A stretch of DNA of 32,232 bases from an uncultured Oscillospiraceae bacterium (GTDB lineage Bacteria > Bacillota > Clostridia > Oscillospirales > Oscillospiraceae): the NCBI GenBank assembly GCA_944385595.1, contig CALWXY010000062.1, forward strand, positions 1-32,232, written 5' to 3'. This document shows positions 158 to 16,553 of this stretch, piece after piece; the stretch's first letter is position 1; every line of letters begins with the position of its first letter. The notes below the pieces were generated by a model, which saw nothing but the letters and a program-made list of their open reading frames with translations, made no database searches and was not told the DNA's origin. The position numbers were made by a program, and so were the translations under genes.

Positions 158-343
158 TTAAATGGCGGCTGGCCCTGCGGGCTTGTCGCTTTTTTCATTT
201 TTCACCGATTTGCCTCGCCGTCTCCCGGCAGTGAATAGTGAAGAGTGAAAAGTGAATAGTGAATAGTTTGGGATGCGGCAAGGCGGCTCGCCGGTCACGA
301 GCAGGCTCAGTATCACCGGATGCTCCGGGCAATTTCTGTACAA
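158..343 (-). CDS. Hypothetical 61-aa ORF, or a non-coding leader, of the leftward transcript
   Basis: TTG at 343 lies 6 nt after AAAGGAGG and downstream of the consensus leftward promoter. The TAA stop (158-160) is followed by hairpin GTGCCGC-tgc-GCGGCAC (138-154). Against coding: codons are not GC3-rich like all neighbouring genes, the ORF runs through the heptamer array, and I recognise no family. Confidence 0.25.
   Translation of the reverse strand: MYRNCPEHPVILSLLVTGEPPCRIPNYSLFTFHSSLFTAGRRRGKSVKNEKSDKPAGPAAI
230..264. repeat. Third heptamer array (5 tandem AGTGAAW units)
   Basis: AGTGAAT AGTGAAG AGTGAAA AGTGAAT AGTGAAT, read directly from the sequence. Confidence 0.8.
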
Positions 344-469: not shown

Positions 470-490
470 CAAATCAAAGGGGTGATATCA
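461..490. promoter_or_regulatory. Two copies of the self-complementary octamer TGATATCA, spaced 22 bp apart
   Basis: Copies at 461-468 (over the -10 box) and 483-490 (abutting the ATG at 490). Candidate autoregulatory sites. Confidence 0.35.
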
Positions 491-1227
491 TGTTCGGCTC
501 AAGACTGAAAGCGCTGCTCGACGAGCGCGGCATAAAACCCAGGGATTTCGCCCGCCGCGTCGGCATCCACGAGCAAACTCTCTACAGCCTCATCGACAGG
601 GACGGCAACAAAATCGACCTCGACGCGCTCCGCCGCGTCTCACACGAGCTCGACATCCCCATCCCCATCCTCTGCGGCGAGGACGGCGACGGGCAGCTCA
701 GCCTGCGCGAGTACGATATGCTGAACAAATTCCGCGCTCTCGACGAACACGGCAGGCGTCTCGCCGAGCTGGTCGTCGACGCCGAGCTCAGCCGCGTCTC
801 CGCCGAAAGCGAGCCGGAAAGCGCGAAAACCAAAATCATCCCCCTCTACGCGACGCCCGCCGCCGCGGGCTACGCAAACCCCGCCCTCGGCGAGGATTAC
901 GAGGACTACGCCGTCCCAGCCGACAGCCGCGCCGATTTCGCCGCCCGCATCAGCGGCGACAGTATGGAGCCCTTCATCGAGGACGGCAGCATAGTCCTCG
1001 TCAGCCGCAGCCAGCCCATCAGCGTCGGCGACGTCGGCCTCTTCTTCGTCGACGGCGATATCAAGTGCAAGCAGTACTGCGAGGACAGCTTCGGCAACGT
1101 CTACCTCTTCTCCCTCAACCGCGCGCGGGCCGACGCCGACACCACCATCCCCGCCAGCAGCGGCATAACCGTGTTCTGCTTCGGCAGGGTGCTGCTCCCG
1201 AAGCGCCCGCCGCTCCCGGACGTATGA
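490..1227 (+). CDS. cI/LexA-type repressor: XRE-family HTH fused to an S24 self-cleaving peptidase domain
   Basis: HTH segment GIKPRDFARRVGIHEQTLYSLI. Ala-Gly site in PAAAGY, catalytic Ser in GDSMEP and Lys in DIKCKQY, at LexA-like spacing. ATG 490 lies 5 nt after AAGGGGTG. Confidence 0.85.
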   Translation: MFGSRLKALLDERGIKPRDFARRVGIHEQTLYSLIDRDGNKIDLDALRRVSHELDIPIPILCGEDGDGQLSLREYDMLNKFRALDEHGRRLAELVVDAELSRVSAESEPESAKTKIIPLYATPAAAGYANPALGEDYEDYAVPADSRADFAARISGDSMEPFIEDGSIVLVSRSQPISVGDVGLFFVDGDIKCKQYCEDSFGNVYLFSLNRARADADTTIPASSGITVFCFGRVLLPKRPPLPDV

Positions 1228-1233
1228 TAGAAT

Positions 1234-1277
1234 GAAAAAAGCGCCTGAGATGGCAAGCCATCTCAGGCGCTTTCTTT
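1234..1277. terminator. Bidirectional intrinsic terminator between the convergent repressor gene and the last tail gene
   Basis: A7, then GCGCCTGAGATGGC-aa-GCCATCTCAGGCGC (perfect 14-bp stem), then TTTCTTT. Confidence 0.85.
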
Positions 1278-1860
1278 ATGTCGATATCTTTTTCGTGAAA
1301 TCGTAGGCCTCGAACTCCCACCAGCTCAGCTCGAGGGCGTCCAGCTCGCCCCAGGTCAGCCCGGCGGACTCGATGTCGTTCCAGCTTGGGTACAGGAAGA
1401 AGTAGCTGACGTTCAGATGACAGGGCAGTATGTCCTCTATGCGCTTCGACAGCTCCGCAAAGTCGGGCGGCACGCCGCGCACATCCTCGAAGTGCACCAG
1501 CACCGTCATCGGCTCCGCGCTCTCCTCCGCCACGGCGGTGAAGCCGGAGCCGGAGAGCGTGTCGTTCAGCGCCGCCTGGGTGAAGCTGCGCCCGTCGATC
1601 CGCATCAGCGCCGCTATGGCGAGGCGTCTGCCGTCCGCGTCGCTGCGGAGCGGGCGGTAGGGGAACAGCTCCTCCCAGGCCGTGAGGCCGTCGTCCTGCG
1701 CCGTCGCGAGCAGCATCTCGCGCAGCGCCGTCTCGGCGCTGTCGAAGCTGAGGTCGAGCACCTCGCCCACGACGTTCAGCTCCTCGCCGGAGCGCCCTCC
1801 GTCGAGCCGGTAGACTCCGAGGGGTCTCAGCAGCTCGCGCATGTTGTCGGCGTAGCCCAT
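1276..1860 (-). CDS. Baseplate/tail protein, XkdU/YmfQ (DUF2313, Mu gp48)-like; last gene of the cluster
   Basis: 194 aa, lying directly after the baseplate-J gene as in PBSX-type clusters. Assignment rests on position, size and general sequence character only. Confidence 0.5.
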   Translation of the reverse strand: MGYADNMRELLRPLGVYRLDGGRSGEELNVVGEVLDLSFDSAETALREMLLATAQDDGLTAWEELFPYRPLRSDADGRRLAIAALMRIDGRSFTQAALNDTLSGSGFTAVAEESAEPMTVLVHFEDVRGVPPDFAELSKRIEDILPCHLNVSYFFLYPSWNDIESAGLTWGELDALELSWWEFEAYDFTKKIST

Positions 1861-1861
1861 A

Positions 1862-2911
1862 CTAAGCCCCCATTTCCGTTATCGTGAGCGTGCCGAGCGT
1901 CGGCAGCACGCCGTCCTGCGCGGCTATGTCCGCCGCCGGGGCGGTGATGCGGTAGTTCGTCACGCCCTCGGCTGAGAACAGCGCGCGGCCTATCTCCGCG
2001 AGCAGCACCGGCCTGCCCAGCATGGCGCCGGTGAACATCTCATACAGCGCGGCCTCGGCGGCCGCCTTCGCGCTCTCGAAATCCCCGCTCTCTATCTGGA
2101 CGCTCACATTCGTCTGGCTCAGCTGCGGGGCGCTCACCTCTATGTCGACGCATATCTCGCGCTGCGACTGCAGGCGCAGCTCCACCTCGCTCACCGTGGC
2201 GCTGTCGGGCGTGCCGCTCTCGGCGGCTATCACGACGTCCACGGTGCCGACGCCGCGGCGCTTCGGCAGCACCTGCACGGCGAAAACGCCGGGCACCGCC
2301 AGCGCCTGCGCCTCGTAGTAGGCGATGTTCGCGCCGTTCGGCAGGCTGCTGTAGCTGTCGAGTATCCTCGCGCGGAGGCTCTCGTCGTCCTCGCCGGCGC
2401 TGCCGCCGGTGAACGGCTCCGGGTTCTGACAGCCCGTGACGCCCACCGGCGGGTACGGCATGTAGCAGATGGCCAGCGCCGGGGCGTTGCCGCTCTCGCC
2501 GCCGCTCACCGCCTCGGCGGGCAGGTCGCAGTAGAGCGCCCCCGCCTCTATCGCGCCCGCCTCGGTCACGGCAAACTCAGTGCCCGCCGCATCCGTGCAG
2601 ATGACGCCCGCCTCTATCGCGACGGGCGAGTCATGCGCCTCGTCCACGAAAAAGCGCAGAGTGCCCATGGCCTTCGTCGCGCCGCCGCGCTCAAGGCCGC
2701 GTATTCCGGCGTGCAGGTCGAGATACTCGCCCTGCGCCGTCTGCGGAAAGGCCTGCCTGCGCGAGAACTCAAGCTGGTTCTCAAGCGCGAGCACCTGTGC
2801 CGCAAAGGCGTAGAACCTCAGCGACATGTCCCCGCCCGGACGCAGCACCAGCGAGCAGCGGCTCTCGTATTCCTTCGCCATCTCGGCGTAGATCTCGTCT
2901 ATGGTTCTCAT
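1862..2911 (-). CDS. Baseplate J-like wedge protein (XkdT-like)
   Basis: About 349 aa following the gp25-like gene. ATG 2911 lies 6 nt after GAGG; the TTG at 2923 in the ORF track is unlikely to be the start. Position and size fit the Baseplate_J family. Confidence 0.7.
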   Translation of the reverse strand: MRTIDEIYAEMAKEYESRCSLVLRPGGDMSLRFYAFAAQVLALENQLEFSRRQAFPQTAQGEYLDLHAGIRGLERGGATKAMGTLRFFVDEAHDSPVAIEAGVICTDAAGTEFAVTEAGAIEAGALYCDLPAEAVSGGESGNAPALAICYMPYPPVGVTGCQNPEPFTGGSAGEDDESLRARILDSYSSLPNGANIAYYEAQALAVPGVFAVQVLPKRRGVGTVDVVIAAESGTPDSATVSEVELRLQSQREICVDIEVSAPQLSQTNVSVQIESGDFESAKAAAEAALYEMFTGAMLGRPVLLAEIGRALFSAEGVTNYRITAPAADIAAQDGVLPTLGTLTITEMGA

Positions 2912-2919
2912 TGCACACC

Positions 2920-3261
2920 TCAAATCACAGTCGTAATGTTCAGGCTGTCGCCACCGGCGGTGAGGCTCAGCTCAAGGCGCAGGCCGTCCTCGGTCTCGCT
3001 GAGCTGCAAATCCTCGAGGACGACGTCCTCGCCCTCAAGCGCCTCGGCCACGAACTGCCTCGCGCTGCCCTCGCGCTCGCTGGGGCGCATGGAGCTGAGC
3101 GTGTAGAGCCTGCTGCCGTAGTCCGGCAGCACCGCAAGTCCACCGCGACGCGCCGCGAGGCGCAGCATCAGGCGCTGGGCCAGCTCCTCCGAGCCGGTGA
3201 CGCTCTCAAGGTCGTGATATTTTCCGGCGGTGTAGTCGCCGTCAACAAGCTTCAGCTCCAT
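2920..3261 (-). CDS. gp25/GPW-like baseplate wedge protein (XkdS-like)
   Basis: 113 aa lying between the spike and J genes. Its start shares one base with the upstream stop (TGATG). Confidence 0.6.
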   Translation of the reverse strand: MELKLVDGDYTAGKYHDLESVTGSEELAQRLMLRLAARRGGLAVLPDYGSRLYTLSSMRPSEREGSARQFVAEALEGEDVVLEDLQLSETEDGLRLELSLTAGGDSLNITTVI

Positions 3262-3686
3262 CAGAGCACACCCCCGTTCGGCTCGTATTTCTCGCCGTTC
3301 ACATAGAGGCTGCCCTCTATGCGGACGGTGCCGTTCAGCCCTATCTGCCCGCCGGTTATGCTTATGCTGCCGTCGGCGTTTATGGTGCAGCTCCCGCCGG
3401 TGATGGTGCAGCTCGAGCCGGCTATCTTCACCTGCTCCGGCACGCCGCCGTCGCGCTGGGCAATCACGCCCGCGACGATGGCCTCGCCCTCGTCCGTCGT
3501 GAGCAGCAGCACCCTGTCGCCCAGCCTCAGGCCGGAGGAAAAGCCCGCCGGCGAGGCCAGTGTGAGCGAGCGCTTCTCGCTCTCGGTCAGCACGGCGACG
3601 GACGCCCCGCCTATGCTGACGGTGCCGGTCTCGGCGCGCACCGGCGCGGAGCCGCCGCCGAACTTCATTTTCTCAGAAATCCACAT
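3261..3686 (-). CDS. Baseplate central spike / assembly protein V-like (XkdR-like N-terminus plus a repetitive beta-helix-like C-terminus)
   Basis: 141 aa. C-terminal repeats are SSCTITGGSCTINADGSISITGGQIGLNGTVRIEG. AAAGGAGGAG lies upstream of the ATG. Confidence 0.5.
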   Translation of the reverse strand: MWISEKMKFGGGSAPVRAETGTVSIGGASVAVLTESEKRSLTLASPAGFSSGLRLGDRVLLLTTDEGEAIVAGVIAQRDGGVPEQVKIAGSSCTITGGSCTINADGSISITGGQIGLNGTVRIEGSLYVNGEKYEPNGGVL

Positions 3687-3690
3687 GTAC

Positions 3691-4623
3691 TCACTCCTCC
3701 TTTATGAGCCGCAGCACGGTCTCGCCGGATTCGGCGTCCGCCGTGCAGCGGCTCTCGGCCACGAGATAGCGCCCGCCGCCGCCCAGCGGGGTCGACGGCA
3801 GCAGCACAATGTCGCCCGCGAATGCCGGGAACATCAGCGGCAGCGTCAGCTCCGTGACGTCCATCTCCCGCTCCGACTGCGCTATCTGGTACTCGCCGGT
3901 GTAGCGCATCGAGTCGTAGAGCGTGTAGCGCGGGACGTTCACCACCCGCCTGCACAGGCAGCCCAGCTCTATGGCCTCCGGGTTCTCGACCACGGTGGAT
4001 ATGCCCGCCGGGTTGTTCTTCACCAGCACATGCGAGAACACCCCGCTGCGCCGCCTGATCTCGCGCTGGCGGACGACGGCGGCGGAGCCGAGGTCTATCT
4101 CGCCGCCCCGCTCGCCGGTGAGTATCAGCCTGCCGCGCCTGTCGAAGCGCGGCTCCACGCCGCCGCCGAAAAAGCAGAAGTCGCGCAGCACCTTCCACTG
4201 GCTCGAGCCGGAGGATATGGGGAACCTGCCCCGGCAGCTCATGGCGCTGTAGCTGACCTCGCTTATCCGCCAGGGATAGACGTGCCGCTCCAGTATCAGG
4301 TCTATGCCGGGGTCCCAGTACTCGGCGCTCTCGGCCTCGTTGTCGAGCAGATACGCCGCCCGCCCGCGCCCGGAGAGGCGCGCCGTCGCGCCGGAGGCGT
4401 CGGCAGACAGCTCGTACTCGTCGACGACGCCGCGAAACACCGTCTCGCCCTCGTGGGTGCACAGCAGCTCGGAGGCGGCGGTAAGCGTCTCCGCGAGGCC
4501 GTCGACTATGGGGAAGCTCAGCTCAAAGGCGTCGCAGTCCCAGATGCTGTGCACTATGTCCCAGGCGAGCAGCACCGGCATGGCCGACATGTTCCCCTTT
4601 GCGTCATATATGTAAGCCTCCAG
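3691..4623 (-). CDS. Baseplate hub protein, XkdQ/YqbQ (gpD-like) family; probable CTG start
   Basis: Follows the LysM protein as in PBSX. The in-frame upstream extension LEAYIYDAKGN begins at CTG 4623-4621, 6 nt after GAGGGGGG. The first ATG is at 4590. Confidence 0.55.
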   Translation of the reverse strand: MEAYIYDAKGNMSAMPVLLAWDIVHSIWDCDAFELSFPIVDGLAETLTAASELLCTHEGETVFRGVVDEYELSADASGATARLSGRGRAAYLLDNEAESAEYWDPGIDLILERHVYPWRISEVSYSAMSCRGRFPISSGSSQWKVLRDFCFFGGGVEPRFDRRGRLILTGERGGEIDLGSAAVVRQREIRRRSGVFSHVLVKNNPAGISTVVENPEAIELGCLCRRVVNVPRYTLYDSMRYTGEYQIAQSEREMDVTELTLPLMFPAFAGDIVLLPSTPLGGGGRYLVAESRCTADAESGETVLRLIKEE

Positions 4624-4635
4624 AAAAATCCCCCC

Positions 4636-5181
4636 TCAGTAAATCCGCACGGTGTCGCCCGCCGTGAGGAGGTTGGGATTTTTAATCTGGGGATTCAGCT
4701 CCAGAAGCTTCTGCGCACCGCCGTAGGCGGCGGCCAGCGTCCAGAAGCTCTCGCCCGGCAGGAGGACGTGCCTGTTCGACTCCGGCTCGCCGTAGCCGTC
4801 GCGCCCGGCCTCGGTGACGTCGCCGTACTGGTCGAAGCTCTCCCAGAACTCGAAGCTGTAGGCGACGTAGTCCTCCGTCGGCACCTCGCGCAGGCTCAGC
4901 TCGACGAAATAGGCGTTGCTCTCCTGCCATATCGGGTGCACCAGCAGCCCCGGGCGGTTCTCGTAGAACACGGTCGCGAGGCGCGAGAACTCGTCGTAGG
5001 CCCCGTCGCCGACAAACTCGCCGCTGCCGCGCAGTATGCGGCAGCTCCTGCCCATGTTCTGCAGGACGTAGGCGCCGAAGGGCACCTTGCGGCAGACTAT
5101 GTCGCGCGAGAACAGCACCTCGTAGGTGTGCGGGTTGTGCGGCCAGATGTAGTTTTTATACCGCATAGGCGTCAGATTCAT
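4636..5181 (-). CDS. LysM-domain tail protein (XkdP-like, tube initiator/baseplate)
   Basis: C-terminal LysM-like segment HVLLPGESFWTLAAAYGGAQKLLELNPQIKNPNLLTAGDTVRIY. Lies immediately downstream of the tape-measure slot. Confidence 0.7.
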   Translation of the reverse strand: MNLTPMRYKNYIWPHNPHTYEVLFSRDIVCRKVPFGAYVLQNMGRSCRILRGSGEFVGDGAYDEFSRLATVFYENRPGLLVHPIWQESNAYFVELSLREVPTEDYVAYSFEFWESFDQYGDVTEAGRDGYGEPESNRHVLLPGESFWTLAAAYGGAQKLLELNPQIKNPNLLTAGDTVRIY

Positions 5182-5192
5182 GGAAAGCCCCC

Positions 5193-5627
5193 CTAGTATT
5201 TCTCAAGCGGCGCGTCGTAGCGGCGGCTGTCGCGCCTGATGCGCTCGGAGTATTCCTCGAGCAGCCTCGCCCTCTCGCCCAGCGAGGCCGCGCCGCCCGC
5301 GGACGCGGCGCTTCCAGTCCGAGCTCCGCCGCCCTCCCCGAAGACGGCGCGCTCCCTCGCGGAGACGGCCTCGCCGCCCGCGAACACAGCCCCGCCCGGC
5401 TCGCGGCGCAGGCTCAGAAATTCGCGCGGCGCCGCGTCCGGCGAGTCCGCGCCGGACGCGCCCTTCAGCAGCGCGGAGGCGGCAAAGCCGCTCTCCGCAA
5501 AGCCCCAGCCCCCGGCGCGGCGGGCATCCGCAAAGTCCCCGCCCGCCGCCGGGGCCGACGCGAGCAGCGCCGCGAGTATCTCGCGCGACAGCTCAGTGAG
5601 CTCCGCGCGGCTCAGTTCAAGCTCCAT
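5193..5627 (-). CDS. 144-aa Ala/Gly/Arg/Glu-rich protein occupying the tape-measure position (candidate mini tape measure)
   Basis: Lies between the chaperone and the LysM protein. Has its own SD: GAGGGAGGG, 8 nt, ATG. The termini look helical (MELELSRAELTELSREILAALL; RARLLEEYSERIRRDSRRY) and the centre is low-complexity. Confidence 0.45.
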   Translation of the reverse strand: MELELSRAELTELSREILAALLASAPAAGGDFADARRAGGWGFAESGFAASALLKGASGADSPDAAPREFLSLRREPGGAVFAGGEAVSARERAVFGEGGGARTGSAASAGGAASLGERARLLEEYSERIRRDSRRYDAPLEKY

Positions 5628-5850
5628 CAGCTCTGCCCTCCCTCAGCCTCTCAAAGCGCAGCCCGTCGAAGGCGGGGTTGAAGCTCGCCTCTCCCCCGCC
5701 CGACTGCTCCGAGAGCAAATGCAGCCCGCATTTGACGACCTCCGCGTCGCTCTGGCAGTAGGGCGCTATGCCCAGACGCCGCGCCACATACCAGCGCAGC
5801 TGCTCCAGAGCGTCGTCGGAGAGCGCCGCGAGCGCGGCGTTCAGTCTCAT
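5617..5850 (-). CDS. Putative tail assembly chaperone (XkdN slot), 77 aa
   Basis: ATG 5850-5848 overlaps the tube-gene stop as ATGA. The upstream 30 codons in the ORF track are an out-of-frame run inside the tube gene. Function is assigned by position only. Confidence 0.4.
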   Translation of the reverse strand: MRLNAALAALSDDALEQLRWYVARRLGIAPYCQSDAEVVKCGLHLLSEQSGGGEASFNPAFDGLRFERLREGRADGA

Positions 5851-6236
5851 GTCTCGGTCTCTATCCTGTGGCTGGCCGTGAGAGTCACCTTCTCGGCCAC
5901 CATGCGGCTGAGCTCGCCGGTCTCGGCGATCTCGCTCCACTGGCAGCCGGTGTAGACGACGCGGCGGTCAGGCTTCACTATGACCAGCGAGAAATCGCTG
6001 AGCGAGTAGAAGTCTATGCCGTCGGCCACGGCCTCGGCGGTGGCGTAGAGCCTCGTGAGCTCCAGCTTGTATGTGAGCTGGGTGGCTATGGTCGCGACCG
6101 GCTCGGACTCGCCGAAGGCCTCGACCACCTGCTCGGAGCGCTTTGCCGTCGCCTTGTAGCTCTGCACGACGGCTATTTTCTTGCCGTCGGCCTCAAGATA
6201 GATGTCGCTGCTTGTGGGAAAACCAACTGTACTCAT
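5847..6236 (-). CDS. Tail tube protein (XkdM-like)
   Basis: 129 aa directly after the sheath gene. AGGAGG lies 6 nt upstream of the ATG. Confidence 0.65.
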   Translation of the reverse strand: MSTVGFPTSSDIYLEADGKKIAVVQSYKATAKRSEQVVEAFGESEPVATIATQLTYKLELTRLYATAEAVADGIDFYSLSDFSLVIVKPDRRVVYTGCQWSEIAETGELSRMVAEKVTLTASHRIETET

Positions 6237-6246
6237 GCTCCGCCTC

Positions 6247-7272
6247 CTATACCGTTATTCTCGCCGCGAGATAGATGTGGTTCAGCCCGTGGGCGACGGT
6301 GAAGCCGAAGCCCACCTCGCAGACTGTCGGGTCGTCTGCCGCCGGCTCGACGGTGACGTCGCCGTAGGAGTCGATGATCTCGCGCGTCACGCGGTCCTGC
6401 AGCTCGATGACCACCTGGGTGCGTATCGCGCCGCGCGTCTGCGCCGTGTTTTTCGCCCTGGAGAAGCGGCGGCGCAGCGAGTCGCGTATGGCGGGTATGA
6501 CCTCGTCGATTATCCGCACGGTGGTGACCTCGCGCCAGGTCGTGTCCTCGACGCCGCCGGTGGTCGTGCGGGTGGTGACGGCGCGGAGCACCGCGGGGGT
6601 GCCGGCCTGATTCTCGATGAGCGTCACGCCGCCGCGCACGAGGGTGTTCACGTCGTCGTCGGAGTAGCGCAGAGAGCAGCCTATGCCGGTGAGGGTCGCG
6701 CCGTTTATGGGCAGAGCCGGGTCGCTTGTCGCGGCAATGACGCCGGTGAGCGCGGCGGCGTAGCTGCCCTTGGCCTCGGCGGCCTCGGCGGCGACGAGCA
6801 CCATGCGCTCGCAGTTGAGCGCCTTTGCCGCCGAGACGAGCGCGGCGGTCTCGCCCGCGCTCTCCGCGACGCCGATGCGGTAGCGGCAGGTCTCGGAGGC
6901 GGCGAGTATGGCCTCCATCATGGCGGAGTGCACGTTGGCCTCGCGGCTGTCGCAGAACATGACGCCTATGCTCTCCGCCTCGCACAGCTCGGCGAAGGCG
7001 GCGGCGTAGTCGGCGGCGTCGGCGTCCTCGCCGACGGCGCGCGCCACCACCGCGCCCGCGCCGCAGCGCAGGGCGACGGCGCACATATCGCTGAGCGAGC
7101 CCTCGCCGAACTGCTCGAGCGCCTGGGCGCTGCTGGTGATCCTCACGCAGCCGAGCTCTGTGCCTTTGGCGCTTTTTGCGGCGCAGCCGGCGTCGCCGCC
7201 GGTGGTCGAGCCGCGCACCGAGCTTGTGACCTCGTAGCTCGAGTACACTCCGGGTCTCTCGTTAAGTGCCAT
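6247..7272 (-). CDS. Contractile tail sheath protein (XkdK-like)
   Basis: The N-terminus MALNERPGVYSSYEV is typical of sheath proteins. 341 aa, followed by the tube gene. Confidence 0.8.
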   Translation of the reverse strand: MALNERPGVYSSYEVTSSVRGSTTGGDAGCAAKSAKGTELGCVRITSSAQALEQFGEGSLSDMCAVALRCGAGAVVARAVGEDADAADYAAAFAELCEAESIGVMFCDSREANVHSAMMEAILAASETCRYRIGVAESAGETAALVSAAKALNCERMVLVAAEAAEAKGSYAAALTGVIAATSDPALPINGATLTGIGCSLRYSDDDVNTLVRGGVTLIENQAGTPAVLRAVTTRTTTGGVEDTTWREVTTVRIIDEVIPAIRDSLRRRFSRAKNTAQTRGAIRTQVVIELQDRVTREIIDSYGDVTVEPAADDPTVCEVGFGFTVAHGLNHIYLAARITV

Positions 7273-7738
7273 GCAGTATCATTCCTTTCACAGTAAATCC
7301 CGTAAATTCGGTCTCGCCGCCCGGCTCGCGCACCAGCCAGAACTGTGCGCCCAGCTCGCAGCGGCAGCGCATACGGCAGAGCTTCGTGTCGAACTCGGCG
7401 GCCCCAATGCCGAGCTCGCCCGGCCCGAAGCCGCCGGACAGCTCGCCGACGGCGAGTATCAAATCGTCCACCGCCGCCGACAGCCCCGCCGAGCCCTCCG
7501 CCGCGGCGGAGTAGACGTCCAGCGCGAACACGGCGCGGCAGCTGAGACCGAACTGCTCGCCGCTCCCGCTCATGCCCATGTAGTCGCCGAAGCCGCCGGG
7601 GGCGACAGTGGCCTTCTTGAGGCAGACGGCCACGGCGGAGCCGTCCGGCTCCGGCGTCTCGCCGGGGAAGGCGCGCACGGCGTGAACGCCGTGCTCAGCC
7701 AGCTCATCCACGAGAGTTTTGGTCATCGCGTCAAGCAT
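7262..7738 (-). CDS. Neck/tail completion protein (XkdJ slot)
   Basis: About 158 aa lying between the head-closure and sheath genes. ATG 7738 lies 6 nt after GGAGGG. Function assigned by position. Confidence 0.4.
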   Translation of the reverse strand: MLDAMTKTLVDELAEHGVHAVRAFPGETPEPDGSAVAVCLKKATVAPGGFGDYMGMSGSGEQFGLSCRAVFALDVYSAAAEGSAGLSAAVDDLILAVGELSGGFGPGELGIGAAEFDTKLCRMRCRCELGAQFWLVREPGGETEFTGFTVKGMILHGT

Positions 7739-8054
7739 TTTCATCCCTCCCCACGCACCTCAGGAGGCACTCGATGTGGTCGAGTCCTCCGCCTGTCATC
7801 AGCTCGCGCCGCACAAGTGCGAAGCGGCGCGAGCCGTCGGTAATGCGCTGTACCTTCTCAGCCTCGCCTATGGCCTCCGCGGAGGCGACGAGCAGATAAC
7901 GCCCGCCGCCTCTGCCGCCCTCCGTCGGAGAGACAAGCGCCTCGCTCGTGAGATCCAGAGGCTGAATGAAGCCGCGCTCGACCCGCCCGGAGGGGCTGAG
8001 GTCGCTGAACACGGTGAATTTCCCGGCAAAGCGCTCTATAAGCTCAAAGTTCAG
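7731..8054 (-). CDS. Head closure / head-tail adaptor protein (start uncertain: CTG 8054 or GTG 8012)
   Basis: Only the C-terminal ~107 codons of track ORF 7731..8459 look protein-like (GLNFELIERFAGKFTVFSDL...RYLLVASAEAIGEAEK...). The N-terminal part is an Arg-rich out-of-frame overlap of gene 8051..8416. Confidence 0.4.
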   Translation of the reverse strand: MNFELIERFAGKFTVFSDLSPSGRVERGFIQPLDLTSEALVSPTEGGRGGGRYLLVASAEAIGEAEKVQRITDGSRRFALVRRELMTGGGLDHIECLLRCVGRDENA

Positions 8055-8416
8055 CCCCTCACCCCCCGGAAGTCGAAGCCGCGCTCGGTGAGCTGGGAGG
8101 CGAGCATCTCCTCGGCGAGGGCGCGCAGCGAGTCGGAGAAGTCCCCGCCGCCTCGCGTGAGCGTCAGCTCGCCGACACGCACGGAGCTGAAGTCCCCGCC
8201 GCCGACGGCGGAGTACATGGACAGCGCGAGCACGCCCGCGGCGGTGACGAAGTCCTCCTTTATGTCCTCGACGCTCACGCCGCTTCTCAGGCGCGACTCG
8301 AGATTCGCCGCCGCGACGGCGCAGAGCGCCGAGAGGGTCTGGCGTCCGCTCTCGCTCAGCTCGCCGCCGAGAAACAGCTCGGCTCTGTCGAGCACCTCGC
8401 CCTGCAGCTCCATCAC
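8051..8416 (-). CDS. Head-tail connector protein (gp6-like)
   Basis: About 120 aa immediately after the capsid gene. Its start overlaps the capsid stop (GTGATG). Confidence 0.45.
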   Translation of the reverse strand: MMELQGEVLDRAELFLGGELSESGRQTLSALCAVAAANLESRLRSGVSVEDIKEDFVTAAGVLALSMYSAVGGGDFSSVRVGELTLTRGGGDFSDSLRALAEEMLASQLTERGFDFRGVRG

Positions 8417-9420
8417 GCGTTCTCCAGGACGAGGGCGGCCTCGGTGTAGATTTTGGCAAAGCCCGCGGTGCTGGTGATGGCGGCGCGCTCGAGCTGGCGG
8501 TCGATGAGCCTGTCGTACTCGACGCTCACGTCGCCGGAGCGCACCATCTCGAGGGCGTAGCCCTTGTCGAGGCCGATAATCTGGCCCTCGGGAACGCAGG
8601 CGCTGCGGATAATCTTGGCGCCAAGGGGCGAGCCTATGTCGCCGCTGCCGGCGAAGTTCAGCCCGGCGACAGGGTTGCGCAGCTCCTCGATTTTGAGCAG
8701 CTGGAGCATCATGTCGGGGGACACGAGCATGGTGTTGAGGGTGTAGGGCTCGAACTTGCCCCAGAAATCGACGAGCGTGTCGTAGCTGAGAGCGCTGCCG
8801 CTCACGACCTCGGCTGCGTTGTCGTTGCCGTCGCCGTTTATGAGGACGTCGATGGCGTCGGCGAGGTGCATCTTGGCGATGTGGTTGCCGATCTGGCGCA
8901 GCATGACGGAAAAGAGCTCAAGGCGCTGGAAGCGTATGGCCTCGTAGGAGGCGACGAGCATTCTGCCGCGCTTGTGCAGGGGGATGAGCTTGTCCTGGGC
9001 GCGGATCTCGGTCTGGGGTATGGCCGCTCCCTCGGCGACGTGGGTGAGGCTCTTCTCGTCCTCGCTGGGCAGGGAGGCGACGGCGCGGTAGTCGAGACCC
9101 TCGATTTTGGTCGTGGTGGCGACTATGCCCGGCAGCACGTTGCTCTCCTCGATGCCCTGGCGGACGCTGCGGGAGACGTACTCGGGAAACAGTACGGCGC
9201 TCTCGGAGCTGTGGAAGAACTTCTCGACCTTGTCGCTGGACGCGCCGCGCACCTTTATGCCGAAGCGCTTGAGCTGGCGCTGATATGCGTCAAGACCCTC
9301 GAGCGCGGTGCCGCGGTACTCCTCGGAGGGGTCGAGCTCCTCCAGGATAGCGGAAAAGCCCTTGCCCGCGACGCTGTACATGCCCTTGTCGAGCTTAACT
9401 TCGTTGAATTTATAAGCCAT
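8413..9420 (-). CDS. Major capsid protein (HK97-fold type)
   Basis: 335 aa following the protease and decoration genes. ATG 9420 lies 9 nt after AAGGAGG. The C-terminal segment EYDRLIDRQLERAAITSTAGFA is typical of this family. Confidence 0.8.
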   Translation of the reverse strand: MAYKFNEVKLDKGMYSVAGKGFSAILEELDPSEEYRGTALEGLDAYQRQLKRFGIKVRGASSDKVEKFFHSSESAVLFPEYVSRSVRQGIEESNVLPGIVATTTKIEGLDYRAVASLPSEDEKSLTHVAEGAAIPQTEIRAQDKLIPLHKRGRMLVASYEAIRFQRLELFSVMLRQIGNHIAKMHLADAIDVLINGDGNDNAAEVVSGSALSYDTLVDFWGKFEPYTLNTMLVSPDMMLQLLKIEELRNPVAGLNFAGSGDIGSPLGAKIIRSACVPEGQIIGLDKGYALEMVRSGDVSVEYDRLIDRQLERAAITSTAGFAKIYTEAALVLENA

Positions 9421-9434
9421 GTGTTGCATCCTCC

Positions 9435-9773
9435 TTAAAGCATGATGGTGGCCGAGCCGGTCTGGACGTCGAGCACGAGGCGCTCTCTGCCGCTGGTGCC
9501 GCTGGTGATGCCGCCGTTTGCGTCGGCGTTCAGCTTGGCGTAGCCGGGGGTGAGGGTGCCGGAGCAGGCGGCGGTGACGCAGCCGGCGAGCTGCACGCAG
9601 GCGCAGCCGGCGCGGCAGCTGAGCACTATGCCGACGAAGTCCTCGCCGCTGGCGCAGGCGGTGACCTCGGCGGCGGCGCTGATTTTGACCGGGGTGCCCG
9701 GCGCGATATCGGCGCCGCTTGCGGTGCCGAAGGTCGCGGTGACGGAACCGATGCCATCAAAAGAATACTTCAT
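9435..9773 (-). CDS. Small Cys-rich head protein (DUF2190-like decoration/cement protein candidate)
   Basis: 112 aa lying between the protease and capsid genes. AGGAGG lies 9 nt upstream of the ATG. Confidence 0.35.
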   Translation of the reverse strand: MKYSFDGIGSVTATFGTASGADIAPGTPVKISAAAEVTACASGEDFVGIVLSCRAGCACVQLAGCVTAACSGTLTPGYAKLNADANGGITSGTSGRERLVLDVQTGSATIML

Positions 9774-9786
9774 TTATAAATTCCTC

Positions 9787-10701
9787 CTATATAATGTAGT
9801 CCTCTCCGTCGAAGCGGGTGTTTCTGTCGCGTCCGGGGAGCTGGCAGAGCGGCGGGAAGCGGCCGTCGAGCTTTTTCTCGAGGCTGAGCCTCAGCTCGCA
9901 CAGCTCCTCCGCGCCCATGCCCTCCGCCGCCTTGGCGACGGCGGGGGCCATCTGCTCATCCCAGAGCAGGCCGAGGCGCTTTACCTCCGCCCGCTCGCGC
10001 TCGAGCAGGCGCTCGCCCTCGGCGGCGAGCTTCTCAAGGCGCTCGAACTCGGCGCGAAACGCGCTGCCCGCCGCGGTCTGTACATAGCCGCGCAGGGATT
10101 TAAGCCCCGCACCCTTGAGCACGCCCGCCTCGCGCTGGGCGGGCACGGCGACGAAGCTCCACTCGTAGGCGTCGGTCGCGCCGGAGAGCACGGTGTGGCA
10201 GAGCTTGCCGTCGTAGCTCAGTCCCGGCACATGCGCGCAGGCGCTCTCGCCGCAGATGCTGCACCGGCGCTCGGACACCGAGCAGCCGACGCTCGTCTCC
10301 TTGACTATGCCCGCCTCGATGGCGGCGATGAAGTCGCCGGTGGCCTCGCTGCGGAGCATGTAGGCCCAGCCCTTGAGATAGCGGTAGACGTCCCCGGCGG
10401 AGTTTTTGCGCTCCGGCACGGCGACGACCTCGGTGCGGTAGATCCGCGCGAGCTGACCGCCCGCCGTCCACTGGTGGTCGAGTATGCCGCTCTTGCCGAC
10501 GAACATGGGCGCTAGCTCGTCGAGGCACTCGTCGGAAAAGCGCTCGAAGTCGCGGTCTACCTCGTTGTCGCAGAGCTTGACCTCAAAGACGTAGACCTCG
10601 TCGGCGCTGAGGGCGCGCTTTGCGAGGGCGTTAATCAGCTCCAGCTCGCGCGCCGCGGCCTCGCCGGCAACCGGAGCGCCGGCGGCCTTTGTGACATTCA
10701 T
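9787..10701 (-). CDS. Prohead protease fused to a coiled-coil scaffold-like C-terminus (XkdF slot)
   Basis: ATGA overlap with the portal stop. The N-terminal domain is followed by a charged helical tail (RAEFERLEKLAAEGERLLERERAEVKRL). Lies between portal and capsid. Confidence 0.55.
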   Translation of the reverse strand: MNVTKAAGAPVAGEAAARELELINALAKRALSADEVYVFEVKLCDNEVDRDFERFSDECLDELAPMFVGKSGILDHQWTAGGQLARIYRTEVVAVPERKNSAGDVYRYLKGWAYMLRSEATGDFIAAIEAGIVKETSVGCSVSERRCSICGESACAHVPGLSYDGKLCHTVLSGATDAYEWSFVAVPAQREAGVLKGAGLKSLRGYVQTAAGSAFRAEFERLEKLAAEGERLLERERAEVKRLGLLWDEQMAPAVAKAAEGMGAEELCELRLSLEKKLDGRFPPLCQLPGRDRNTRFDGEDYII

Positions 10702-11852
10702 ATGGAAGCCTCCTTTTCTCCGGCCTCAGCCAGATATTTTTTAGCCTGGGCGGCATACAGCTCCGCCCTTGCGAGCTCGACCTTGTCCTGCAGGTTCACA
10801 GACTCCCACACCGGCTCAAACGAGCAGGCGTAGCCGTGCATCCTCAGCCAGAGCGAGCATATCCGCCTCACGACGGGGTCGAGACTGCGCCGGTGGGCGC
10901 TGATCTCGCTGGTCATGAGGTCGGCCTGCTGCGAGGACATGCGCTCGGTGGAGCTCCAGTTCAGCCCCAGCATGAAGGGCGGAATGCCCGTGCGGGCGAT
11001 GAGCTGCTCGAGTATCTGCCTCACAGGCACCTCGCTGTCGAGCACCTGGTTGTCCGCGCCGATGACGCGTATGTCCACGTCGCCGACGGCGACGAAGTCG
11101 CGCACGGCGCCGGAGCGCGTCTCCTGCATGGCGCTGCTCCACTCGCGAGCCACCGCCTCCGCCCGCTCGGCGGCCCCGCCGCGCTCCGACAGCTCGCCCG
11201 ACGGACGGCAGACCACCGCGTAGCGCAGGTTGCCGCAGCGCTCCCAGTTGACGCCGATGGAGGTGAAGATCTTCATCAGAATGTCGGTCAGGAAGGGCAT
11301 GCTCCGCAGCATGGAGGAGCCGTAGGGGCTGTCGGGGTCGGGGTTGAACGGCGTGAACAGCAGCAGATCCTGATACGGCAGCGGGCGCGGGTCGAGCGAG
11401 TCGTTGAGGCAGATGGCGAAGTCCAGCGGGCTGCGCCCCTCGCGCACGCACACGTCGGCGACGTTGCCGCAGATGAGGGCGGCGATGTCGCGGTTTCCGG
11501 CGGTGACTATCTCGCCGACGGCGCGTCCGCTCGTGATCATCGAGTCGAGATAGGCGTCGAGAAACGAGCCTATGCCGCGCCCGCCGCGCCCGGTGTCGAC
11601 GGTGCGGAGGAACTCGTTCAGCTCGCGCTCGGCGCGCGCGTCGGAGCACTTCGCGGTGACGCCGCCGGTGAGGCGCACGAGCTTTTGTATGGCGGCGTCG
11701 ACCACCGGCACGCCCTCGCGTATGGCGCGGTAGAGGCGGGTGTCGCCCCCGCCGAGCGGCACATAGCCGTCGAGGGTGGTGAAAGGATGCCTCGCGCCGG
11801 CTCTCAGCTGCGCCCTCGCGGCGGTGTCCTTTCCTTTTTGAAACAATCTCAT
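10698..11852 (-). CDS. Portal protein
   Basis: 384 aa. ATG 11852-11850 overlaps the terminase stop as ATGA. Lies between the TerL and protease genes. Confidence 0.7.
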   Translation of the reverse strand: MRLFQKGKDTAARAQLRAGARHPFTTLDGYVPLGGGDTRLYRAIREGVPVVDAAIQKLVRLTGGVTAKCSDARAERELNEFLRTVDTGRGGRGIGSFLDAYLDSMITSGRAVGEIVTAGNRDIAALICGNVADVCVREGRSPLDFAICLNDSLDPRPLPYQDLLLFTPFNPDPDSPYGSSMLRSMPFLTDILMKIFTSIGVNWERCGNLRYAVVCRPSGELSERGGAAERAEAVAREWSSAMQETRSGAVRDFVAVGDVDIRVIGADNQVLDSEVPVRQILEQLIARTGIPPFMLGLNWSSTERMSSQQADLMTSEISAHRRSLDPVVRRICSLWLRMHGYACSFEPVWESVNLQDKVELARAELYAAQAKKYLAEAGEKEASI

Positions 11853-13132
11853 TTTTCCATCAAACTCCTCCATCCCGTGTTATTTGAGGGTGAGCGGCTC
11901 ACCGAGCATACGGCGAGCGAGGCGGGTTTCGCGGCGGCGAAGCTGGCGGCGAAGTAGCGCATGTCGTCCATGGCGTGATCGTTCTGCTTGAGCGGCCTGT
12001 CCGCGCCGCCCGGCTCCCAGCAGTAGAGAGACAGCTCGCGCAGGGTGTCGGCGCAGTTTCGGCAGATGACGAGCCTGCCCGTGCGGAGCAGCTCGGCGGT
12101 GAGGCGAATGCCGCTCAGCACGTCGTTTTTCGCCTTCATCACGGGCAGCCCGGCGCGCGAGAGCGCCTCCATGAAGCTAGCCGCCGACGGGTCGACGATG
12201 ACGGCCTCCACCTTCCGGTGCGCGATGAGGCGGATGAGCTCCGAGACGTACTCGCCGTCGGTCATCTGCCTGCCCTCGCGGCGCGAGTCGAAGTAGAACT
12301 CGTCGATGCGGTACCACACTCCGCCCTTCTCCGCCCAGAGGCCGAAGGAGGCGGGGTTCACCGTGCCGTAGTCGCATGAGACGGCATAGCGCTCGAACGG
12401 CCCGTCCGGCACATCCGCCGCCATGGACTCGTCGAAGAAGTCGTACACCCTGCCCTCGGCCTGCACCCACTCGCCCAGCACGAATCGCCTGTAAAACGCC
12501 CCGGAGTACATGCGCGAATACCGCTCGAGCATACGCTTCGAGAGCGTCGGGTTGTCGCTCATCTTGAAGCGTATGTAGAGGGCGCGCCGCTCGCGGGCCT
12601 TGAGTATCCACTCGCGGTAGAACCAGTGCGAGGGCGACTCGGGGTTGCAGTTGAACCAGAGCTTTGCCCCTTCGACGGAGCAGCGGGCAATCGCCTGCTC
12701 GACGAAGCTGCGCGGCATGAGCGCCACCTCGTCGAGCAGAACTCCGGCCAGCGTCACGCCCTGGATGAGCGCGCGCGAGCTCTCGTCGCGCCCGCCGAAG
12801 AGGTAAAAGGTGTTGCGTCTGCCGCCGAACTCGACGACCACGCGGTTTTTCGAGACCTTGTCGCAGCAGGCGAAGCCGAGCGAGCGCAGCGAGGGCAGCA
12901 GCTCGTCGAGCAGGTTGCGCCTGAGCGAGACTATGGTCTTGCCGCAGAGGCCGAAGCGCTCGCCGTCAAAGCAGCGCATCGCCCAGATGATGAACGACAG
13001 CCCCATACACATGGTCTTGCCGCTGCGCACCGCTCCGTCGCAGATGATGGCGTCGAGCGAGGCGTAGGGCGAGGAGGGGCTGTGCCAGGTGAGCACCTTG
13101 AGCTGCTTCGGCGAGAAGCGCTCAATCCGCAT
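11849..13132 (-). CDS. Terminase large subunit (PBSX XtmB-like)
   Basis: Walker A motif in CDGAVRSGKT, 427 aa, with an acidic nuclease-type C-terminal half. GGAGG lies upstream of the ATG, inside the end of terS. Confidence 0.9.
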   Translation of the reverse strand: MRIERFSPKQLKVLTWHSPSSPYASLDAIICDGAVRSGKTMCMGLSFIIWAMRCFDGERFGLCGKTIVSLRRNLLDELLPSLRSLGFACCDKVSKNRVVVEFGGRRNTFYLFGGRDESSRALIQGVTLAGVLLDEVALMPRSFVEQAIARCSVEGAKLWFNCNPESPSHWFYREWILKARERRALYIRFKMSDNPTLSKRMLERYSRMYSGAFYRRFVLGEWVQAEGRVYDFFDESMAADVPDGPFERYAVSCDYGTVNPASFGLWAEKGGVWYRIDEFYFDSRREGRQMTDGEYVSELIRLIAHRKVEAVIVDPSAASFMEALSRAGLPVMKAKNDVLSGIRLTAELLRTGRLVICRNCADTLRELSLYCWEPGGADRPLKQNDHAMDDMRYFAASFAAAKPASLAVCSVSRSPSNNTGWRSLMEK

Positions 13133-13445
13133 CTCCGCCTCCGAGCGCCGCGGCTGCGCTGTCGAGCGCCGTGACGAAGCTCTCCGCCGGGTTGGACTCG
13201 GCGTCGAGCATCCCCGCCAGCAGCTTTAGCAGCTCCAGCCGGTTGGTCAGCCTAATCTCAACGGCGCCGCTCGGCGAGCGCTTCAGCTCGGAGATGTGGC
13301 GCAGATCCAGCTCGTCAATGCCGCTCAGCTCCTCCGGCTCGAGATAGAGGAGCTTCACGGCGTCGTTGCAGCCGCCGAGTGCGAGCTGGGCGAGCGCCGA
13401 GACCAGGTCGGCCTTTTTGATTTTCTTCTTCAAACCATCGATCAC
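13122..13445 (-). CDS. Putative terminase small subunit
   Basis: 107 aa, first gene of the cluster, overlapping terL by 11 nt. GAGGTG lies 4 nt upstream of the ATG. Function assigned by position and size. Confidence 0.5.
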   Translation of the reverse strand: MIDGLKKKIKKADLVSALAQLALGGCNDAVKLLYLEPEELSGIDELDLRHISELKRSPSGAVEIRLTNRLELLKLLAGMLDAESNPAESFVTALDSAAAALGGGDAD

Positions 13446-13476: not shown

Positions 13477-13529
13477 TTGCACCGTCATGTGCAAAGCGCG
13501 GAAAAATTTTTTCTTTTTCGGCGAAAAAG
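13477..13529. promoter_or_regulatory. Two perfect palindromes in the terS/tetR divergent intergenic region (candidate operators)
   Basis: TTGCAC-cgtcat-GTGCAA at 13477-13494 and CTTTTTCG-g-CGAAAAAG at 13513-13529. Confidence 0.4.
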
Positions 13530-16091: not shown

Positions 16092-16095
16092 TAAC

Positions 16096-16133
16096 AAAAA
16101 AGCTCCGGAGGAAAATTCCTCCGGAGCTTTTGT
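16096..16133 (+). terminator. ftsH intrinsic terminator (copy 1 of a duplicated ~42-bp hairpin)
   Basis: AGCTCCGGAGG-aaaatt-CCTCCGGAGCT followed by TTTT. Confidence 0.8.
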
Positions 16134-16221
16134 CGCCCCGCTTTGCCGCCGCGGCGGCAAAATATGCGCGAAGCGGAGCGCAATCTCTTTGCATTAAAAG
16201 GCGAAACGCCTTTTAATGCAA

Positions 16222-16264
16222 CAAAAAAAGCTCCGGAGGAAATTCCTCCGGAGCTTTTGTCGGC
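16222..16264. repeat. Copy 2 of the ftsH terminator hairpin
   Basis: CAAAAAAAGCTCCGGAGGAAATTCCTCCGGAGCTTTTGTCGGC compared with copy 1 at 16095-16137: two single-base length differences and one substitution. Confidence 0.8.
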
Positions 16265-16445
16265 AAAAAGGCGGGCGACAAGTCGCCCGCCGCCCCGCGA
16301 ATGCCGTGGTGACCCAATTAGAACCTGCACGACTCGGCAGGTGGGTCGCCTCCTCACAGCTTCTCTGCTTCCAACTTCCAGGCGCGGTCAAAGCCGCCCC
16401 GGGAGGCCTGCAATTCACTGAGAGAGCCGGCGTCCCGTAGTAAAA
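16265..16445 (-). ncRNA. Orphan GC-rich structured segment ending in a canonical minus-strand intrinsic terminator (candidate sRNA or 3'-UTR-derived RNA; class unknown)
   Basis: Minus strand: GGCGGGCGAC-tt-GTCGCCCGCC followed by TTTTT (16291-16265). Upstream helices include GCCUCC/GGAGGC, GACCCA/UGGGUC and ACCUGC/GCAGGU. No gene lies downstream on this strand. The 5' end is undefined. Confidence 0.25.
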
Positions 16446-16553
16446 ATGTGGGTTTAAATGGGTCAGTAAAAAATCCACGCACAACGCAGGGATTAAAAAC
16501 AGTATGAATCGCAAGCGCGATTATTTGTGGCCGGCGCGCCGGCGAAAGGGAAC

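Follow-up and report, generated by a model that had tools for sequence, protein, structure and literature searches.

Can a cluster of phage head and tail genes that has no visible means of replicating itself be something other than a piece of a prophage? The question is raised by contig CALWXY010000062.1 of an uncultured Oscillospiraceae bacterium, which we analysed over its entire length of 32,232 bp (the window). Between positions 1276 and 13445 (12.2 kb), the contig carries 19 co-oriented, tightly packed minus-strand genes, from a small terminase to a Mu gp48/XkdU-like baseplate protein. They are predicted to encode a complete small head and a minimal contractile tail with a simple Mu/P2-type baseplate that lacks a fibre, and seem to provide no means of replication, integration or excision. 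We put the probability at roughly 60% that the cluster descends from a Firmicute myovirus, has been domesticated and fixed in the chromosome, and produces particles akin to gene transfer agents (GTAs) or to PBSX of Bacillus subtilis.

Oscillospiraceae have been reported to package chromosomal DNA in a GTA-like, DNase-protected form, with a main read-length peak of about 5.9 kb in Onthomonas and with Pelethomonas as a second case (PMC12946183), and the responsible gene cluster was not identified (PMC12946183; bioRxiv 10.64898/2026.07.08.737213). The cluster described here is a strong candidate for the machinery behind this packaging of bacterial DNA into virus-like particles (VLPs).

Distribution and chromosomal residence of the cluster

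We used the sheath protein to scan GTDB, with one genome for each species, and the capsid protein to scan IMG/VR, and retrieved 21 GTDB genomes and 80 IMG/VR loci. Pseudoflavonifractor phocaeensis (NZ_JAUDDJ01) and isolates of Flavonifractor or Oscillibacter are carriers that can be cultivated. The 21 sheath loci all belong to Oscillospiraceae (Pseudoflavonifractor, Flavonifractor, Oscillibacter, Dysosmobacter and uncultured lineages), and the capsid scan gave more than 568 relatives, most of which lie on 12–14 kb fragments filed as 'proviral'. Capsid homologues make up at least 8000 clusters at 90% identity, and 382 representatives at 50% identity match at E ≤ 1e-30. Every complete locus (about 60) has the same gene order and a span of 11.3–14.0 kb from the large terminase gene (terL) to the last baseplate gene (gpU), and the complete gene set is kept across proteins that are only 40–60% identical. 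The family is thus large and, so far, found almost only in Oscillospiraceae; it is apparently undescribed, since literature searches found no published description of it.

The genes that flank the cluster are host genes, among them those for GlgB, DacB (D-Ala-D-Ala carboxypeptidase), RecG, MutY, RidA, CstA, KdpDE, ABC transporters and GerA; they are common within clades and differ between clades. Because about 60 complete copies of 11–14 kb are embedded in housekeeping genes in this way, the cluster is not a prophage that was cut by the edge of the window. Integrase, excisionase, primase, replication and anti-repressor genes were not found beside the cluster in these ~60 loci, with the exception of two sister loci in which a 390-amino-acid (aa) tyrosine-integrase-like gene lies 150 bp past gpU on the opposite strand (L058, 16834–18006; L068, 18256–19428), followed by genes of low GC content at third codon positions (GC3). 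These integrases probably belong to a separate mobile element that inserted beside the cluster. In the close relatives, no integrase, fibre or early genes follow the baseplate end, which is where a preliminary description of the window, made from its letters, had expected them if the cluster were part of an ordinary prophage.

The window is the whole contig, and its left end lies only 1.2 kb past the cluster; the left flank was therefore inferred from relatives. The closest relative with long flanks is a locus on a 214-kb contig of Ca. Heteroscillospira (L025; capsid 79% identical), where the cluster occupies the orthologous site beside the same DUF1292, penicillin-binding protein (PBP), HD and DnaG genes. 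Synonymous divergence (dS) between the two loci is 1.07 for the cluster and 0.95–1.42 for the neighbouring host genes, values that are near saturation and that fit co-divergence in place. In pairs with unsaturated dS (0.05–0.8), the ratio of nonsynonymous to synonymous divergence (dN/dS) is 0.08–0.18 over about 3000 codons, and it is similarly low for terminase, portal and capsid and for sheath, tube and baseplate. The head genes are therefore maintained and not vestigial, and the joint maintenance of head and tail speaks against both decay to a remnant and the role of a tailocin without a head.

Codon usage points in the same direction. With a GC3 of 0.889, the cluster is close to a set of 11 host genes (0.871), and relative synonymous codon usage correlates between the two sets with r = 0.983, so that the host-like, GC3-rich codons previously noticed by eye are now measured. 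Together, the ~60 compact loci of the same content, the orthologous site, the dN/dS values and the codon usage support the core of the preliminary description, namely that the cluster is a candidate domesticated particle of the GTA or PBSX kind.

Some members of the family are damaged. L033 (1–1224 and 8445–10069) is degraded, with terL split into two open reading frames (ORFs), no sheath gene and foreign replication/mobilisation-like genes after the hub gene, and L032 is truncated. We had considered the sheath-less loci L031–L033 as a podovirus-like sister form, and this was given up when the split terL and the mobile-element insertion revealed L033 as degraded. Two faecal scaffolds carry partial sets: L024 (21602–27432) has a head-only block, from the small terminase gene (terS) to the neck genes, among host-like genes, and L023 (373–8026; 43% GC) has a head module, a neck gene, a LysM protein and a hub and no recognisable sheath or tube. 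Faecal contigs deposited as 'bacteriophage' likewise include scaffolds with both the cluster and host genes, which is weak evidence given deposition bias. The Mexican faecal scaffolds probably originate from a DNase-treated VLP virome (PMC8361208).

Head, packaging and tail genes

Genes were identified with Pfam, PHROG and NCBIfam profiles, and the tail tube with AlphaFold2 and Foldseek. The family scans reveal the gene order of PBSX and Mu (terL, portal, capsid, sheath, LysM/gp43-like, gp44-like, Baseplate_J, gp48/XkdU-like), and all 19 reading frames of the cluster are open in the window, in agreement with the intact operon first described. Of the overlapping stops and starts reported at that time, the ATGA sequences at 5847–5850 and 10698–10701 match the ORF coordinates, whereas the one at 11849–11852 fits an internal methionine of the portal protein, whose longest ORF starts at 11873. 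The head and neck genes, in operon order, are as follows.

13122–13445, minus strand: small terminase (TerS), short form, 107 aa; oligomerisation core (Terminase_2) without the N-terminal helix-turn-helix (HTH) DNA-binding domain
11849–13132, minus strand: large terminase (TerL), 427 aa; NCBIfam TIGR01547 (PBSX family TerL), 177 bits against a cut-off of 105; Pfam Terminase_6N and 6C; phrog_2
10698–11873, minus strand: portal protein, 391 aa; phrog_30703 portal, 541 bits; weak Pfam Phage_portal
9787–10701, minus strand: probable prohead protease/scaffold, 304 aa, function inferred; between portal and capsid genes; phrog_16951, 339 bits
9435–9773, minus strand: small virion structural protein, 112 aa, possibly head decoration; phrog_4588; kept in all loci
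8413–9429, minus strand: major capsid protein, 335–338 aa; Pfam PF25209 Phage_capsid_4; phrog_3922, 343 bits
8051–8416, minus strand: head–tail connector candidate, 121 aa; by position; kept in relatives; no family match
7731–8054, minus strand: head–tail joining candidate, 107 aa; 51% identical to the L025 gene at 11367–11690
7262–7744, minus strand: neck or tail-terminator candidate, 160 aa; phrog_25177; directly before the sheath gene; kept in relatives

TerS occurs in two forms in the family, 16 of 18 members of which match Pfam Terminase_2. The long form (~155–170 aa, as in L008, L009 and L019) covers Terminase_2 positions 4–128 and includes the HTH domain, whereas the short form (90–110 aa) covers positions ~57–130 only and is found in the window, in L025 and in roughly half of the family. 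The window TerS also gives a weak profile match to the SF6 TerS core (3ZQM). Only 137 bp separate terS from the TTG start of a divergent TetR ORF, which leaves too little room for an HTH domain; the 158 bp given earlier for this gap holds as the distance to the first ATG of the TetR ORF. TerS of the GTA of Faecalibacterium prausnitzii (FpGTA) has no obvious DNA-binding domain either (PMC12946183), and the short TerS of the window, which lacks the HTH domain in the same way, hints at random packaging.

The portal protein corresponds, at 46% identity, to the N-terminal half of a portal-MuF protein in a prophage (L107; see below). The protease/scaffold candidate has invariant Asp, His, Ser and Cys columns in its N-terminal 195 aa and a C-terminus that is weakly coiled-coil-like. 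The AlphaFold2 model of the capsid protein (predicted local distance difference test score, pLDDT, 47) was too poor for structure comparison, and sequence and profile searches of the PDB with protease/scaffold, tube, sheath and capsid gave no meaningful matches. The head–tail joining candidate, the eighth gene of the operon, has a CTG at 8054–8052 where its L025 orthologue has ATG, so that the stop/start overlap reads CTGA instead of ATGA, and an in-frame GTG follows 14 codons downstream. Initiation would thus be non-canonical or from the downstream GTG, possibly with a shortened product, or the change may be a silent defect.

The remaining ten genes encode the tail and the baseplate.

6247–7272, minus strand: tail sheath, 341 aa; Pfam Phage_sheath_1C (3e-12) and Phage_sheath_1; phrog_279 and phrog_165
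5847–6236, minus strand: tail tube, 129 aa; AlphaFold2 model (pLDDT 72.8) with Foldseek matches to tube proteins
5617–5850, minus strand: tail assembly chaperone candidate, 77 aa; by position, after the tube gene and before the tape-measure slot; 55% identity with its L025 orthologue
5193–5627, minus strand: protein in the tape-measure position, 144 aa; synteny with Mu gp42 and PBSX XkdO
4636–5181, minus strand: LysM / Mu gp43 (DNA_circ_N)-like baseplate hub protein, 181 aa, XkdP position; Pfam LysM and DNA_circ_N; phrog_184
3691–4590, minus strand: baseplate hub, 299 aa, Mu gp44 / XkdQ position; phrog_177
3261–3686, minus strand: central spike candidate, 141 aa; phrog_25991; weak match to a beta-helical trimerisation domain; by position
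2920–3261, minus strand: gp25/W/Mu gp46-like sheath initiator, 113 aa, XkdS position; PHROG baseplate/wedge families
1862–2923, minus strand: Baseplate J, 353 aa, XkdT position; Pfam Baseplate_J 2.7e-43; phrog_6
1276–1860, minus strand: Mu gp48 / XkdU-like baseplate protein (gpU), 194 aa, last gene of the operon; Pfam PF10076, 33 bits (below the gathering score of 37.4); phrog_521 (tail protein), N-terminal part only

The tube was one of the proteins for which a structural comparison had been proposed, and the best Foldseek matches of its model are tubes of phage 812, diffocin, phiCD508, Hcp and RcGTA (E 7e-5 to 1e-3, template modelling score ~0.45–0.5). Two baseplate assignments can be compared with the prophage L107: the window sheath initiator is 35% identical to an L107 gene with Pfam Sheath_initiator/GP46, and the L107 gene syntenic to the window hub matches Pfam Gp44-like_2nd, yet there is no direct sequence match between the two hub genes.

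The tape-measure slot is the most unusual part of the tail. The interval between the tube and LysM genes measures 0.48–1.44 kb across ~70 loci (with the exception of the degraded L033), and its last ORF, which occupies the tape-measure slot, encodes 136–273 aa; the chaperone-slot ORFs encode 75–145 aa in all loci. The tape-measure-slot protein has a short conserved helix at its N-terminus and the invariant motif RD(A/S)RRYD at its C-terminus, and the part between them is variable and of low complexity; conserved ends around a variable middle are the pattern expected of a length ruler. As a rule of thumb, a tape measure accounts for ~1.5 Å of tail length per residue, and on this basis the 136–273 aa of the slot predict a contractile tail 20–40 nm long.

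Candidate control elements and lysis genes

Four further features of the window border the operon or lie close to it.

13477–13494, unstranded: conserved palindrome TTGCAC-N6-GTGCAA, candidate operator; 32 nt upstream of the terS start at 13445; single match in the window
1238–1273, unstranded: bidirectional intrinsic terminator that closes the operon; 16-bp stem, 9 GC pairs, T-runs on both strands
490–1227, plus strand: HTH and S24 (LexA/CI-type, autocleavable) repressor, convergent with the operon; Pfam Peptidase_S24 and HTH_26; phrog_4
242–343, minus strand: small conserved ORF with the motif MYRxCPE, divergent from the repressor; tblastn match to small genes of L025 and L026

The palindrome is found ~45–60 nt upstream of terS in most loci. 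Of the 41 loci whose upstream sequence is available, 24 contain it with two or fewer mismatches, against a single match (with one mismatch at most) in 674 kb of background sequence. Its variants are symmetric, with changes at four of the six positions (TTGTAC..GTACAA, TTGCCC..GGGCAA and TTGCAT..ATGCAA). Since the palindrome stays upstream of terS while the flanking genes differ, it points to a common regulator that would act in trans and be encoded elsewhere. An intrinsic terminator was ruled out, because the side of the T-run varies between loci and the stem is conserved in sequence; a known RNA was ruled out as well, the only Rfam match in the window being 6S RNA at another place. A promoter scan found no canonical sigma-70 promoter before terS.

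On the left, the strong bidirectional terminator and the convergent repressor that had been noted after the last baseplate gene are both in place. The S24 repressor has a 68% identical orthologue at the same place in L025, is absent in L026 and has a weak match in L029; apart from the latter, a linked repressor is thus confined to the window and L025, and it may take part in controlling the element. The perfect 17-nt direct repeat TTTATGATTTTTCGTAA occurs at 355–371 and 417–433, amid back-to-back promoter-like sites that serve the repressor and the MYRxCPE ORF; its two copies may act as operators of a switch-like region, which is also conserved in L025. Farther left, the low-GC contig end holds arrays of the heptamer AGTGAAN (GTGAATA, GTGAAGA and GTGAAAA), inverted around small hairpins at 44–78, 101–131 and 229–267. 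L025 has a short copy of such an array at the equivalent spot before tRNA-Tyr, and the arrays may have caused the assembly break at the left end of the window.

On the right, upstream of terS, lie the divergent TetR gene, ftsH, 6S RNA and genes for DUF1292, a class A PBP, an HD phosphohydrolase, dnaG and rpoD. The TetR and ftsH neighbours are not conserved, being absent in L025, and no evidence supports the earlier view that the cluster is wired to host-type regulators of this kind. The 6S (SsrS) RNA gene lies at 16288–16495 on the minus strand, between ftsH and the DUF1292 gene (Rfam, 64 bits against a gathering score of 46), and a 43-nt palindromic, terminator-like sequence occurs twice downstream of ftsH, at 16093–16135 and 16220–16262, 127 bp apart.

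Family scans of all genes called in the window gave no match to integrase, fibre, holin or endolysin families, and no att-like direct repeats were found around the cluster, exactly as the preliminary description had it; for the lysis module, this absence holds only for the 1.2 kb between the cluster and the window end. In that interval the window has, beyond the repressor, the small gene at 242–343 and then the repeat-rich low-GC stretch. L025 continues after gpU with the S24 repressor and a divergent small gene; the tRNA-Tyr and tRNA-Thr genes come next, on the opposite strand, and behind them lie genes for an 80-aa protein, for a sigma70-region-4-like protein of 95 aa and for a GH25 lysozyme. 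This order recurs in L026 minus the repressor, with ThiF and a transporter after it, and L037 has the tRNA pair and the 80-aa/sigma-like pair before its sequence ends short of the GH25 position. The pair of tRNA-Tyr(GTA) and tRNA-Thr(TGT) on the opposite strand is thus found in three diverged loci (L025, 19474–19651; L026, 11514–11677; L037, 12977–13163).

The 80-aa, sigma-like and GH25 genes past the tRNAs may be either the element's or the host's. In L026, the cluster-adjacent GH25 lysozyme (12377–13273) has an N-terminal lipoprotein-type signal (…LMLASCSS); its export without a holin is therefore possible, or it is a host autolysin instead of an endolysin. Other loci carry lysis genes on either side of the cluster. 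In about 12 of them an M15 peptidase gene comes directly after gpU; elsewhere there is an amidase, a holin-like gene, or a holin-like protein paired with a CHAP enzyme. That such varied, swapped cassettes adjoin the cluster in different lineages suggests that the particles are released by lysis. The statement that the cluster lacks every non-structural module is therefore too strong: it stands for replication and integration genes, but lysis and sigma-like genes lie beside the cluster in relatives, and the lack of a lysis module is probably true of the window and not of the element.

Descent of the cluster and possible role of its predicted particles

Which phages the cluster derives from is indicated by the nearest true phages with a capsid of the same family, the full-size myovirus prophages L107 and L108 (Sporanaerobacter-related) and L109 (Brevibacillus). 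These look like real phages; Tad2-like anti-defence genes occur in two of them, in L109 upstream of the terminase together with other early genes (resolvase and dUTPase) and in L108 within the tail genes. Portal, protease, capsid, sheath, tube, LysM, W and J genes are syntenic with those of the cluster, at identities of 38–46% (portal), 33–40% (protease/scaffold), 38–44% (capsid), 42–45% (tube) and 35% (LysM), with weaker similarity for sheath, W and J. Unlike the cluster, all three have larger TerL proteins and portal-MuF fusions, and the same syntenic slot holds tape measures of 733 aa (L107, 14604–16805), 726 aa (L108, 7339–9519) and 1017 aa (L109, 15631–18684). Given this synteny with phages that have long tape measures, the Oscillospiraceae element looks like a streamlined derivative of the same myovirus lineage.

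PBSX shares the gene order of the cluster, from small and large terminase through sheath, tube, chaperone, tape measure, LysM, hub and spike to the W-, J- and U-like proteins, and the window TerL falls into the PBSX TerL family (TIGR01547). Both are resident and non-replicating and encode a head with a contractile tail. With 12.2 kb, the cluster is less than half as large as PBSX (~28 kb), as was seen from the start, and the likeness is one of gene order and TerL family: there is no family match beyond TerL, NCBIfam and PDB gave nothing for sheath, tube, capsid and portal, and gpU stays below the PF10076 gathering score. The tape measure of PBSX, XkdO, has ~1300 aa, about ten times the 144 aa in the window. 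The PBSX fibre (XkdV) and the xhlA-xhlB-xlyA cassette have no counterpart in the operon, where the terminator comes directly after gpU, and the window TerS differs in lacking the HTH domain.

FpGTA, the only GTA described so far from gut Clostridia, and the cluster have in common that they occur in these bacteria, with a compact head operon, a TerS without an obvious DNA-binding domain, no replication or integration genes and lysis genes apart from the main operon. FpGTA is podovirus-like, with a tail set divided between two operons, and has an N4-gp56 family capsid and a Prp-type protease (PMC12946183), whereas the window capsid belongs to PF25209 with no N4-gp56 NCBIfam hit, and sheath, tube and the full baseplate lie in the same operon. 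Judged by annotation names, the capsid and protease families differ, and the cluster family looks like an independent domestication. The RcGTA-type agents of Alphaproteobacteria resemble the cluster in being vertically inherited head–tail clusters of roughly 15 kb under purifying selection, and in RcGTA itself the tape measure is likewise short and TerS likewise has no DNA-binding domain. RcGTA is siphovirus-like and has no sheath, however, and we found no sequence similarity between it and the cluster, only the generic likeness of the tube fold (6TBA, E 1.4e-3).

The contractile core of sheath, tube and baseplate is also common to R-type tailocins, diffocins and extracellular contractile injection systems, and a diffocin tube is among the top matches of our tube model. 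These systems have no capsid, portal or terminase, all of which the cluster keeps under constraint. Capsid-forming phage-inducible chromosomal islands and other satellites have an integrase, replication genes and a regulatory module and use helper tails, whereas the cluster is without such genes and has a complete tail module.

If the cluster is a domesticated particle producer, it might work as follows. The operon would be derepressed in a subpopulation of cells, under control exerted via the palindrome upstream of terS; in the clade of the window, the neighbouring autocleavable S24 repressor and the nearby sigma-like activator are perhaps involved. Proheads would then assemble, and the TerS without a DNA-binding domain would act with the PBSX-family TerL to fill them, headful by headful, with essentially arbitrary chromosomal DNA. 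Tails of ~20–40 nm would join the filled heads, and a nearby or unlinked endolysin would release the particles, which would either deliver DNA to related cells, like a GTA, or act mainly on the envelope, like PBSX.

Several points weigh against this interpretation. The genomic position of the cluster varies between genera, a tyrosine integrase adjoins it in two loci, and in one neck gene of the window the ATG start is replaced by CTG. A tail built on a 144-aa tape measure might be too short to cross the Gram-positive wall, and adsorption is unexplained because family scans of the window and the flanks of relatives found no fibre or receptor-binding gene in or beside the cluster. Around half of the family retains a full-length TerS with an HTH domain, so that non-specific packaging is no family-wide prediction. 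Finally, the 12.2-kb cluster may fit whole into a head of T=4 size, which would make self-transfer possible, unlike in classical GTAs.

The alternative that survives best, though we consider it unlikely, is a killer particle of the PBSX type (a phage-like bacteriocin), whose tail contraction would damage competitors and whose packaged DNA would be incidental and undelivered. PBSX itself packages 13.4-kb host fragments but acts as a tailocin (PMC12946183), and besides the shared gene order and TerL family, the conservation of sheath, spike and LysM hub under purifying selection would suit such a role. A killer needs a tail fibre or receptor-binding protein for targeting, and no gene for one was found; its predicted tail is also very short. 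Furthermore, head and terminase genes, which killing does not require, are as constrained as the tail genes, although PBSX keeps its heads too.

Less probable again is a helper-dependent mobile element, either satellite-like or a cryptic mini-prophage, that brings its own virion genes, leaves induction, replication or excision to another phage or element, and moves between genomes. The CI/LexA-type repressor and the small gene divergent from it look like a lysogeny switch, one small head could hold the whole cluster, and IMG/VR files such regions as proviruses. Mobility could likewise be read from the different genomic locations between genera, from the tRNA genes that abut the cluster in L025, L026 and L037 and from the integrase 150 bp from gpU in L058 and L068. 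These two sister loci, with their foreign low-GC3 genes, are the only ones of ~60 to carry any integrase, excisionase, primase or replication gene, however, and no att repeats were found. The orthologous site with host-equal dS, the fully host-like codon usage and the flanks common within clades are also difficult to reconcile with a mobile element. A decaying prophage remnant without current function is very improbable: the CTG start of the eighth gene, the degraded L033, the truncated L032 and the head-only block of L024 would fit decay, but all 19 reading frames are open in the window and the same complete set persists across proteins that are 40–60% identical, at a dN/dS of ~0.1.

We therefore return to the domesticated particle producer. 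In its most far-reaching form, which we advance tentatively and at somewhat less than even odds, it is an independently domesticated, undescribed GTA lineage that forms the basis of DNA packaging in gut Oscillospiraceae and the smallest known particle with a head and a contractile tail (12 kb, 19 genes, 20–40 nm tail). If this is true, the cluster, which as a whole amounts to about one small headful, could occasionally transfer itself, and the distinction between a GTA and a minimal virus would be less sharp. The element is an example of myovirus streamlining, with a tape measure cut ~5–7-fold, a terminase without its DNA-recognition domain and no fibre, and it offers a minimal contractile head–tail system for structural and engineering work. 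At present these loci are filed as phages by provirus predictors and in phage databases, with the result that gut Clostridia are credited with too many prophages. For the Oscillospiraceae themselves, the cluster provides a concrete, conserved and very widespread candidate locus for the unexplained packaging of their chromosomes in the gut.

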